Assembly: GCA_964449585.1 (NCBI GenBank)
Contig: CAYUZE010000001.1
Span: 42,836 to 106,835 of the forward strand
DNA length: 64,000 nucleotides
Reading direction: 5' to 3'
From: an uncultured Gammaproteobacteria bacterium
GTDB lineage: Bacteria > Patescibacteriota > Microgenomatia > UBA10105 > UBA927
Position numbers: made by a program. Positions 36,001-39,000 of this stretch are shown here, one piece after another. The stretch's first letter is position 1. The number at the start of each line of letters is the position of its first letter.

Positions 36001-39000
36001 GCCCGTACCATCGCGCATCATGTTACACACGGATCTGCCGGGATTTTCCATGTCTCTCCAAACAGGGCGACAACACCTTATCACTTTGCCCGGCTGGTGG
36101 CACAATCCTACGGTTATCGAACCTCACGTATACAGGGAGTGTCTCTCAGTGAGTTATACGGACCTGAACGAGCGGCGATTAGACTCCGTCGTGCATGTCT
36201 TTGGGCTGAATCTGCGGAAATACCAGCAAAAACTCCCGAAGAGGTATTAAAAACCAACAACAGAGACGACAGGAAAAGCATCGGTCGTATGACCGATAAT
36301 CTGTTATAATACCCGCGGGAAGAGGCGTCATCGTACGGCAACGGAACCCGCCTTTCCACCTATTTATAGTCACCTGCCTTTTGTTGCGGCGGCAGTAGCA
36401 TCGTTTTTATATCCAAAAACGATCCTTAGTAACCCGTTTCATATATCTCCATGCATATTATCACCACAATGAATTTTACGGGCACCAATGAAATTATCAT
36501 GTGCAAAGCCTGGATATATTTTGCAAAACGATTCAATCCCGACGCATTTATCACCATCATTCATCATGATCCGATACCGGAAATAAAACGTTTCGCTGCA
36601 TCATATACAAAAGTTCGTTTTATCCGTCTTACCACAAAAGAAATGTGTCCGGTGATGACGCGAGGTTTTACCGATCATCCGTGTCAGGAAATAAAGCTTT
36701 CAGTTTGGAAACAGGCAAAAAAATATCGCATAAAAAAGTTTTTATATATTGATTGTGATGCCTTTATACTCGGTTCATTAAAAAAATGGTGGGATCACAT
36801 TGACGACAAGCCCTTCATTGCGGTAAATGAGCAGATTGCCCCTTACGACCCGATCTATAACGCTGGCGTGTTCAGCTATAGCAGCGATAAGGATTTCATT
36901 ACTTATGAAAAACTGCTTGGGCAATATCGGGAAGACGGGAATCGTATTAAGCTGCATCTGGGCGATCAAGGGCTTACCAATACCTATTTGCGTAAGATTG
37001 GCTATGATTATACCCATCCCGCAATCGATTTTACCTATAACTGTATCGCAAAATGGTCACATACTGTCACCGTGTCAGATGCTGCTATCGTCATCAAATC
37101 TGGTACATTTCCGATGTTACGAAAACTCTGGATCAAGATCCTTGGACGTGAGTTGGAATGGTGGGAAAAATGGGCGTGGTGGAATAGAAACAAACGGGTT
37201 ATTATTCTACATGCATTCGGCAGAAAAGGATTTAAATTTTGGGAACTCAAAGAGTGCGAAGCGTTATGGGAATATTGTAAAAAAATTACATCTTAACTTG
37301 CATGAGGCATACCAATTCGGTAATCCAAAAGAGGAAATTTGAGGAATCTTCGGTAACATCCAGCCTTGAAAATGTATTCAAGAAAAAGCGGGGGTATGTC
37401 TTTCGCATGCCGAAGCCGGATTCCGAAGTGCTCTTGCTTGTTTCTGGCGGCCTCGACTCTATTTTAATCTGGGGATTCCTCATGGAGAGATACCATCTCA
37501 AAGTGCATCCGCTGTTTCTCAATAAGGGAGAACAGAGAGCTTCTCGAGAAGAAAATTCGCTTGATTATTTCAGCCGATTTTATTCCTCACGGTATCCTTC
37601 GCACTTTATACAACCTGTAAAAGAAACGATCTATTTGCCACAAAAGGAAATTCTTCAAATGTTAAAGACTCCGTACGACAATTTATTACGGTATGAGAGA
37701 CAGACAATCCGCGGGTACAATCCCTATACTACAACAAATATTTTTCTTGGATCACCCGGTCTGGTGCCGCTGTATGCAATGCTTCATTCAAGATTTCTTG
37801 AACTGCGCGAAAACAAAAAGATTCGCACTATTTTTTCATCAATAATGCTCCATGACGGGGATATGTGCCCTTCGCAGACGCTCACTTCAATTCGGACAGT
37901 TAATCTTGCCATGTGTGCATTCACCGGCGATTATGCTTGGCAGTTTACCAGTCCATCTGTCGAACCGTACCTCGGTTATTTTTATGGAAAAAGTGACCTG
38001 ATTAAATGGGGAAGCAAACTAAACATACCGATGGAAAGAACCTGGAGTTGCTACCGAGGGCTACGTTTTCACTGTGGCAGATGCCTCGCCTGTGACGCCC
38101 GTAAGCATGAATTTAAAAAGGCCCGCATCCCGGATCGCACGCACTATTCAAGAGCATTTGATTATTCCATTCGCATATCCAACCGCCTTCGGCGCATCTT
38201 TTCGGTCCGCTAAGCATTTATATCGTGTCAATCAATTGTGGGGATCAAAGGGTGTCGTAGAGGCGCATGAGCCGTTTTGCATTTCGTTCCGAATTAAATT
38301 TCCCCTGAACATAGCGCGACACCTTATCCTGCAGAATGCAATACGCATGCTCATCTTCAAGCAGCTCTCCAACTTTTGCTGCTAATAACACGGGAGATGG
38401 GGGATACGGAATACTGCAATGAAATTCTTTTCTGCTCGTTTCCATAAGTCCATCAACGTCGGTAAATATCACCGGCTTCCCATAATAATTAGCCTCAAGG
38501 TTCACAAAAGAAAGCGTATCTTTATACGTCGGCGAAACGCAAATATAAAAATACTTGTATGCGGCCAGTATTTCCTCGGTATAGTCAAAAAAATGAAACC
38601 GTGAGTCTAAGCCAAGGTTTATCACCCGTTGCCTGCATTCTTCATAGTACCGGTCACGAAATACATACTCCTTATGATTTCCAAAATGAACAAAGTATAC
38701 GTCCGGATATTTTTTGGCTAACATGGCCGCAGCCTCGATAAACACATCAACGCCTTTCAGGGGATCCATTCTACTGACCAAGGCGACAATTCGTCGATTA
38801 ACAGGAATCTTTTTTTCAAATTCTTTCAGGCGCGTATGCCGCCACTTTTCCATCTCGGGAAAAAAAAGTCCCCCGTAATGGTACGCGGCATAATTCACCA
38901 TCCCTTTATAGAGCATTTTGAATTGGCGAAGCGAATCTTTAGATACGGCGATATAACGGATTTGCTTATGCAGTCGGAGTAAATAATTTTGGAATCTGCT

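Follow-up and report, generated by a model that had tools for sequence, protein, structure and literature searches.

The 64-kb stretch of DNA analysed here (contig CAYUZE010000001.1, positions 42,836 to 106,835; hereafter the window) carries a gene for a QueC-like protein, which we call QCL, within a large surface-glycan locus extending over roughly 23.8 to 62 kb of the window. From the left, this locus comprises a Bac_transf initiating transferase and an epimerase, an ABC-2 permease, a protein with an adenosine 5'-phosphosulfate (APS) kinase domain and an ABC ATPase, followed by glycosyltransferases of families GT2 and GT1, a sulfotransferase, a radical SAM protein, an RmlD-like reductase and a weak GT8-like protein (X281), after which comes QCL. 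Past QCL, a GT1, a PIG-L deacetylase, a short CapD-like dehydratase and a Methyltransf_24 methyltransferase are encoded on the minus strand, and further to the right lie a GT1, a radical SAM/SPASM protein, Wzx, Wzy_C, DUF4330, GT4s, a GT2, DegT, FdtA, a carbamoyltransferase and again Wzy_C. The original prediction had placed a QueC-like PP-loop enzyme in a glycan cluster, and this setting is confirmed by the glycosyltransferases, the sulfotransferase, PIG-L, the CapD-like gene, Wzx, Wzy_C, Bac_transf and the Wzm/Wzt-type ABC transporter genes. In the relatives of the window locus, QCL is surrounded by glycan genes as well. The window DnaA (62272-63639) is 92 % identical to a protein named in NCBI as DnaA of Candidatus Gottesmanbacteria, which assigns the window to a genome of the candidate phyla radiation (CPR)/Patescibacteria (Microgenomates), close to the replication origin. 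Features that could have pointed to cyanobacteria (DUF4330 and the GC content) or to Gammaproteobacteria (EpmA and a MurL-like gene) proved misleading. The end of X281 and the start of QCL are 5 bp apart, and the two genes are probably co-transcribed; X281 occupies the equivalent position in five related loci (L001, L002, L003, L010 and L049).

Table 1. Positions of the features discussed, in the window or, where a locus number is given, in that related locus
Feature	Position	Strand	Remarks
QCL gene	37302..38213	+	303 aa, ATG start
Family-specific N-terminal extension	37302..37421	+	aa 1-40, two helices; from alignments, structure model and hhalign
PP-loop SGGLDS	37443..37460	+	aa 48-53, ATP pyrophosphatase motif
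Remodelled substrate region	37743..37880	+	aa 148-193; from hhalign column mapping
QueC-type zinc ribbon	38049..38093	+	C250-x7-C258-x2-C261-x2-C264
X281, weak GT8-like glycosyltransferase	36451..37296	+	281 aa; Pfam GT8 E 5e-4, below gathering score
GT1-family glycosyltransferase	38245..39393	-	convergent with QCL; conserved in the window's clade
PIG-L family N-deacetylase	39387..40109	-	conserved in the window's clade
Short CapD/Polysacc_synt_2-like dehydratase	40145..41002	-	in the slot of the Orn/DAP-type decarboxylase of L049 and L010
Methyltransf_24 methyltransferase	41240..41974	-	sole canonical cassette partner left in the window
ABC-2 permease	25557-26441	+	
APS-kinase-domain protein	26445-27407	+	320 aa; C-terminal domain after ~147 N-terminal residues without assignment
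ABC ATPase	27421-28197	+	
Sulfotransferase	33403-34185	+	downstream of the APS-kinase-domain gene
Radical SAM protein, weakly STM4011-like	34218-35237	-	conserved in L003, L010, L049
RmlD-like gene	35206-36309	+	called GTG start overlaps the radical SAM gene
Radical SAM protein, SPASM-type	43244-44272	+	conserved in L003, L010, L049
DegT aminotransferase	55491-56600	-	
FdtA-like isomerase	56597-57004	-	
Mini-ORF	L007 5214-5282	+	example given in the text
Mini-ORF	L024 4279-4356	+	
Mini-ORF	L015 1266-1346	+	
Mini-ORF	L038 2073-2141	+	
Mini-ORF	L012 3951-4061	-	
Mini-ORF	L017 9438-9596	+	
Mini-ORF	L016 ~10970-11050	+	
Mini-ORF	L026 ~2080-2165	+	
Mini-ORF	L009 ~7580-7648	+	
Mini-ORF	L025 7320-7397	-	
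Mini-ORF	L005 9820-9918	-	
Mini-ORF	L029 8960-9031	+	

Relation of QCL to QueC

The two predicted motifs, a SGGLDS PP-loop and a zinc ribbon composed of SCYRG (residues 249-253) and CGRCLAC (258-264), are both present, and the protein matches the Pfam QueC family PF06508 in two stretches with 51.4 bits, above the gathering score of 22. Among 131 diverse QCL members, G50 and D52 of the PP-loop and the four zinc-ribbon cysteines are invariant, and Y251, the Tyr after the first ribbon Cys, is kept in QCL as in QueC. The window protein scores 474.7 bits against the family hidden Markov model (HMM) and carries all of the invariant and nearly invariant residues of the family alignments. Two contigs from other sequencing runs encode the identical protein, again preceded by X281. 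The motifs are therefore not a chance occurrence. On the basis of its sequence, we assign QCL to the QueC superfamily as a PP-loop ATP pyrophosphatase that contains zinc.

The extra N-terminal and internal sequence that had been predicted, and the resulting excess length, were also found. As compared to canonical QueC, which is ~220-231 aa long (PMC13329287), the 303-aa QCL has ~75 additional residues, distributed over a ~40-aa extension at the N-terminus, an enlarged middle region and a tail at the C-terminus. The extension, which canonical QueC lacks, holds the family-conserved E14, R30 and P37, and the structure model is confident over residues 11-40 (predicted local distance difference test score, 92-98). 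When QCL is compared with canonical QueC by plain profile-sequence alignment, the match is confined to ~45 aa at the PP-loop and ~58 aa at the zinc ribbon, whereas the profile-profile match obtained with hhalign begins at residue 41 and spans 218 columns.

Although the fold, the SGGxDS loop, the four-Cys zinc ribbon with its Tyr and the Asp before the YPDC position (D185 in QCL) are common to both, QCL lacks the substrate-recognition features of QueC (TIGR00364; PF06508 cluster 1). In QueC, Y35, R99 and Y131 are essential for the formation of 7-cyano-7-deazaguanine (preQ0), and the canonical motifs are YxQxHxxE, VPxRN and YPDC (PMC13329287). In the hhalign alignment, these three residues correspond to K75, S151 and C189 of QCL. 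YxQxHxxE is aligned to K75-G-E-Q-R79...E83, with the Tyr, Gln and His replaced, VPxRN to F148-L-G-S-P152, and YPDC to C189-P-S-Q192, where only the Pro is kept. The QCL family instead conserves a set of its own, consisting of E14, R30, P37, W57, D185, Q192, T195, R198, E221, K230, R267, D278, T280 and Y282. With its Asp/Glu-plus-Arg pattern, the remodelled pocket would be suited to binding a small zwitterion.

QCL reached only 34.8 bits against the QueC equivalog TIGR00364 (cut-off, 150.3) and 12.4 bits against PRK11106/NF008317 (cut-off, 378). Since its TIGR00364 score falls far below the cut-off and the essential substrate motifs are replaced, QCL lies outside QueC proper; it is very probably not a functional QueC and, to judge from these residues, would no longer make preQ0. 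That QCL is a genuine, if unusually long, QueC that makes 7-cyano-7-deazaguanine for queuosine or for DNA with deazaguanine is hardly credible, even though it passes the Pfam gathering score, retains the PP-loop, the zinc ribbon and Y251, and has relatives annotated with this function. In agreement with the predicted lack of a queuosine context, a scan of all window open reading frames (ORFs) with 150 aa or more, and of the main ones of ~100-150 aa that do not overlap, revealed no queD, queE, queF or tgt and no second match to the QCL profile. The four genes were likewise absent from every related QCL locus examined, in which the conserved neighbours are unrelated to deazapurines, in contrast to the que gene context of QueC.

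Other PP-loop enzymes were compared with QCL as well. Cap9 of type IV CBASS and QatC of QatABCD are QueC-family enzymes that conjugate proteins. The zinc ribbon is the segment of QCL that matches QueC, Cap9 and QatC most strongly, and with PADLOC, the models of QueC and QatC match there only; the curated QatC model gave 19.4 bits against a cut-off of 280. Deazaguanine-stacking residues are not evidently kept in QCL, and the partners of Cap9 and QatC (CD-NTase, Cap10/TGT, QatA/B/D) are not among the neighbours of the window gene, which lies in a glycan locus and not in a defence island. A kinship with WbpG/PseA, the N-acetyl-sugar amidotransferases that form an acetamidino group on an amino sugar, had been suggested for QCL. 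WbpG, PseA and WbuX (TIGR03573) are also PP-loop enzymes of glycan loci that install nitrogen on a sugar substituent, WbpG falls within PF06508 as cluster 5 (PMC13329287), and the window locus contains amino-sugar genes. However, QCL does not combine a TIGR03573 match with the signature SGGxDSxY and CxxC(x)6CxC; the suggested kinship finds no support, and this function is very unlikely. We regard as similarly improbable a sulfur-transferring or thioamide-forming PP-loop enzyme of the LarE/TtuA/YcfA kind, as the four cysteines follow the QueC zinc-ribbon pattern rather than the three-Cys [4Fe-4S] pattern of LarE and TtuA, and no sulfur-carrier or cysteine desulfurase gene is conserved near QCL.

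The QCL family and its conserved partners

A word-indexed search returned 31 relatives of full length (297-344 aa), below which came a gap before canonical QueC appeared, while an exhaustive profile search (E<=1e-30, whole profile covered) returned 239 representatives of clusters at 50 % identity. The named members belong to Patescibacteria (Shapirobacteria, Parcubacteria and Microgenomates), together with some metagenome-assembled genomes labelled Gammaproteobacteria, and database entries label these relatives 7-cyano-7-deazaguanine synthase. The clade is characterised by a length of ~300-340 aa, the extension with E14/R30/P37, and D185, R198, K230, R267, D278, T280 and Y282, all of which are present in the window protein. 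A 2026 similarity-network survey of PF06508 analysed the ten largest clusters, comprising 98.5 % of the sequences; PqqD, decarboxylases, glycosyl genes and Patescibacteria are all absent from its text (PMC13329287). In the literature searched, we found no description of the cassette presented below, and within these bounds QCL is an undescribed clade of the QueC/PF06508 superfamily.

We gathered 34 distinct QCL loci and searched them with HMMs of recurrent neighbours; 15 of the loci are well flanked, with 3 kb or more to either side. The search used the narrower alignment A1, the broad alignment A2 being too diverse. A Methyltransf_24 methyltransferase and a pyridoxal phosphate-dependent amino-acid decarboxylase each occurred in 14/15 well-flanked loci, an ABC ATPase in 13/15 and a PqqD-family protein in 8/15, and de novo clustering of all QCL neighbours gave the same ranking of partners. 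The ABC-2 permease and ABC ATPase genes of the window represent an exporter of this kind. The common gene order is Methyltransf_24, decarboxylase, QCL and PqqD, often with overlapping stop and start codons. The decarboxylase is of two types. One is a group II enzyme, nearest to histidine, serine and tyrosine decarboxylases, and the other is of the ornithine/diaminopimelate (Orn/DAP) type, nearest to LysA, FslC (N-citrylornithine decarboxylase) and BtrK (Glu-acyl carrier protein decarboxylase). Two of the best-matching relatives of known structure for the Orn/DAP-type partner, FslC and BtrK, both act as decarboxylases on amino acids in previously conjugated form. Some QCL loci also encode a fusion of a major facilitator superfamily protein and a spermidine-synthase-like protein. 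Weak matches to the 'SpmSyn' HMM (E > 1e-12) proved to be ABC ATPases and were discarded, and conserved small ORFs of 70 aa or more in the vicinity of the cassette turned out to be artefacts, lying antisense within known genes.

PqqD adjoins QCL in 14 of the 34 distinct loci and is fused to it as a C-terminal domain in five proteins (P0101, P0102, P0103, P0110 and P0114). Other fusions join QCL to a Peptidase_S24/S26-like domain (P0050) or a Ham1 domain (P0150). On examining ORFs of 18-70 aa, we found uncalled ORFs of 22-35 aa beside PqqD, which share a basic N-terminus, the motif Y-x-(K/P)-P-x-h-x-K-h-K-h and a short variable tail, as in MRKKAYRSPKDKKVRIEAILAT from L007. An HMM built from six of these mini-ORFs recovered non-seed examples at the equivalent position in other loci, and the last two (L005 and L029) were found by manual reading, so that a mini-ORF is present in 14/14 PqqD-containing loci. 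An independent regular expression gave 11 matches in 490 kb read in six frames, 7 of which lie within 300 bp of PqqD, a zone that accounts for 2.5 % of the sequence (binomial P about 2e-9). The motif resembles the PqqA and lasso-peptide leader motifs that are bound by PqqD-type domains, and the mini-ORFs are candidate precursor or scaffold peptides.

These findings bear on an alternative in which QCL would be an enzyme of ribosomally synthesised and post-translationally modified peptide (RiPP) pathways, amidating or nitrilating the C-terminal or a side-chain carboxylate of a peptide that, in the case of the window, would be encoded elsewhere in the genome, as would its recognition protein. Lasso cyclases likewise pair a PqqD-type RiPP recognition element with a PP-loop enzyme. 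The adjacency and fusion of PqqD and the constancy of the mini-ORF, with its Y-x-x-P core, argue for such a role, as does the basal position of the PqqD-linked members in a neighbour-joining tree of the family, which is crude, lacks support values and is suggestive only. The Asn-synthetase-like PP-loop enzyme PesC, reported in 2026, provides a precedent, as it turns the C-terminal carboxylate of a RiPP into a nitrile (PMC13060819). In both PesC and the lasso cyclase, ATP activates a peptide carboxylate before the C-N bond is made, and a PqqD-type element with a leader-bearing mini-peptide is common to the RiPP PP-loop systems and the PqqD-linked QCL members. However, PesC and the lasso cyclase belong to an AsnB-like branch of PP-loop enzymes, whereas QCL is QueC-like. 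Moreover, neither PqqD nor a motif-bearing mini-ORF was found in the 64-kb window or in any of the loci of its clade (L003, L010, L022, L049 and L051). In the tree, the window, L003, L010, L049, L051 and L020-22 form a derived monophyletic group without PqqD, and this group is nearest to the PqqD-distal paralogs of the two-copy loci L004 and L009. Two separate clades without the peptide retain QCL, Methyltransf_24 and the decarboxylase. For the window enzyme, we therefore consider a RiPP-like function unlikely.

The tandem paralogs of the two-copy loci (L004, 9072-10034 and 10001-10969; L009, 5605-6537 and 6537-7520) fall into different branches of the tree according to whether they are adjacent to or distal from PqqD, which suggests that the two copies serve two distinct steps.

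The window is a stripped variant of the cassette. The trio that is constant in its clade consists of QCL, the convergent GT1 and the PIG-L deacetylase. Within ~6 kb of QCL, Methyltransf_24 is present and a decarboxylase is absent; the decarboxylase is in fact missing from the whole window, the sole such case in the 15 well-flanked loci. Comparison with L049, whose QCL protein is 70 % identical to that of the window, revealed DNA homology over 37375-40111 and 41303-44247 only. The stretch skipped between them, 40111-41303, contains the CapD-like gene in the window and the Orn/DAP-type decarboxylase in L049 and L010. The upstream pair of Methyltransf_24 and group II decarboxylase of L003 and L010 is also missing, and the GT8-like gene directly abuts QCL. 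A tblastn search of the window for remnants of the decarboxylase, PqqD and spermidine synthase gave one marginal match of 23 aa. It lies at ~41119-41187 (-), in a 238-bp gap beside Methyltransf_24, and aligns to a decarboxylase C-terminus with 39 % identity and an in-frame stop; it may be a deletion scar.

The window gene could accordingly be an orphan relic, which lost its partner decarboxylase(s) by cassette swapping and has no productive substrate or a degenerate role. The solitary absence of the decarboxylase, the CapD-like gene exactly in its slot and the possible remnant of its C-terminus would fit this account. However, the ORF is intact with every invariant and nearly invariant residue, the identical protein recurs in its arrangement with X281 in two other sequencing runs, and the 5-bp gap couples the gene tightly to X281. 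CPR genomes are small, and dead genes are as a rule soon lost from them. A relic is thus improbable.

Proposed function in the glycan locus

The presence of an APS-kinase domain and a sulfotransferase implies that this CPR bacterium forms a sulfated surface glycan. The PIG-L deacetylase could expose a free sugar amine, and DegT and FdtA would provide a route to a 3-amino-3,6-dideoxyhexose, which is a candidate amine acceptor whose link to QCL we propose by inference only. As for the RmlD-like gene, its true start is probably ~170 bp downstream of the called GTG, since the Pfam match begins only at residue 60.

The window also contains three proteins with a Wzy_C domain (13759-15060 (-), 45579-47123 (-) and 60157-62154 (-)) and two Wzx-type flippases (12428-13729 (-) and 44178-45578 (+)), an investment in surface-polymer genes that is unusually large for the small genome size typical of CPR bacteria. 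Outside the glycan locus, neighbouring MurD and MurL-like genes (17115-18482 (-) and 18485-19879 (-); the latter with 224 bits against a cut-off of 700) hint at a route to the D-Glu of peptidoglycan in which L-Glu is added and then epimerised. A phage-integrase-family gene (11-634 (+)) lies at the left edge of the window, beside valS.

Our favoured reading, held with evenly balanced confidence, is that the window QCL would tailor the surface glycan as an ATP-dependent amide ligase of the carboxylate-adenylating kind. QCL would adenylate a carboxylate with ATP, as do QueC and Cap9, and the acyl group would then be passed to a nitrogen nucleophile to form an amide. In Cap9, the best structural match, the carboxylate is activated at the α-phosphate of ATP and is then attacked by an amine that is not ammonia but belongs to a peptide (10.1101/2025.04.06.647259). 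The original prediction of an amide or nitrile formed on a carboxylate is therefore plausible as regards the amide, which is expected for the fold; a second, ATP-dependent dehydration to the nitrile would be possible but finds no support here. The constant methyltransferase and decarboxylase partners suggest a substrate derived from an amino acid, probably an amine or an omega-amino acid. Given that the two peptide-less clades keep QCL, Methyltransf_24 and the decarboxylase in glycan loci, this core trio seems to have a role independent of the peptide, which favours glycan tailoring for the window enzyme. Its role would probably be the cytoplasmic tailoring of the sulfated glycan by an amide bond.

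The ligation could run in either of two directions. In the first, an omega-amino acid, produced by decarboxylation of Asp, Glu or DAP and possibly N-methylated, would be activated to acylate an amine on a macromolecule, such as the amino group of a sugar that is deacetylated by PIG-L or synthesised by FdtA/DegT. This direction fits the QueC/Cap9 paradigm, the polar pocket, the neighbouring PIG-L gene and the FdtA/DegT genes of the window. In the second, the carboxylate of a sugar acid or a peptide C-terminus would be activated and coupled to a decarboxylase-derived amine, in analogy to FslA/FslC. In rhizoferrin (FslA/FslC) and butirosin (BtrJ/BtrK) biosynthesis, an ATP-dependent ligase and a pyridoxal phosphate-dependent decarboxylase together install an amine or acyl group derived from an amino acid, by way of an amide bond. 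The glucuronamide of the Campylobacter jejuni capsule (Cj1436-Cj1438) follows the same logic of decarboxylase plus ligase and is analogous to the second direction. In all three systems, however, the ligases are NRPS-independent siderophore (NIS) synthetases or ATP-grasp enzymes and not of the QueC fold, and the window differs from them in having no decarboxylase.

Several observations weigh against an amide ligase acting on the glycan. Without the decarboxylase, the usual co-substrate of the enzyme may be missing in this genome. Neither the window nor the annotated relatives encode a uronic-acid-forming enzyme or a UDP-sugar dehydrogenase. This weakens the second direction in its uronic-acid form, and the uronic-acid target of the original prediction is not supported. 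The association of the basal QCL members with PqqD and the mini-peptide suggests that a peptide, and not a glycan, was the ancestral substrate. Finally, while the fold, the motifs, the separation from QueC and the conserved cassette are shown by the analysis, we infer from gene neighbourhood and analogy what chemistry QCL performs, in which direction it ligates and that the glycan is its target.

For the family as a whole, one can conceive of a new biosynthetic system, mainly of CPR bacteria, in which a PqqD-type protein would guide a QueC-fold enzyme to a PqqA-like mini-peptide of 22-35 aa. There, the enzyme would use an amino-acid fragment supplied by the decarboxylase and the methyltransferase to build an amide-linked (or nitrile) modification, and the modified peptide would be either the final product or a scaffold or carrier, as in pearlin or butirosin chemistry. 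The product might then be exported, or passed to the surface glycan, by way of the co-conserved ABC transporter, and the window gene would descend from such a system, having given up the peptide and acting on the glycan itself. We see this joint reading as a possibility that is less probable than not, and the main interest of the locus lies in the family-level picture of the PqqD fusion, the mini-peptide and the partners, and less in the stripped copy of the window.

The QueC fold was long tied to deazapurine synthesis alone, until nucleobase-protein conjugation in phage defence was described in 2025-2026. The QCL clade, which is not part of the ten clusters that the 2026 PF06508 survey analysed, would extend this fold to the tailoring of the cell envelope or of peptides. 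Meanwhile, its annotation as 7-cyano-7-deazaguanine synthase inflates the queuosine capacity predicted for CPR genomes. The cassette of methyltransferase, decarboxylase, QCL, PqqD, mini-peptide and ABC exporter is compact and could be reconstituted in E. coli, and would thereby offer a direct route to new modification chemistry of unculturable organisms.

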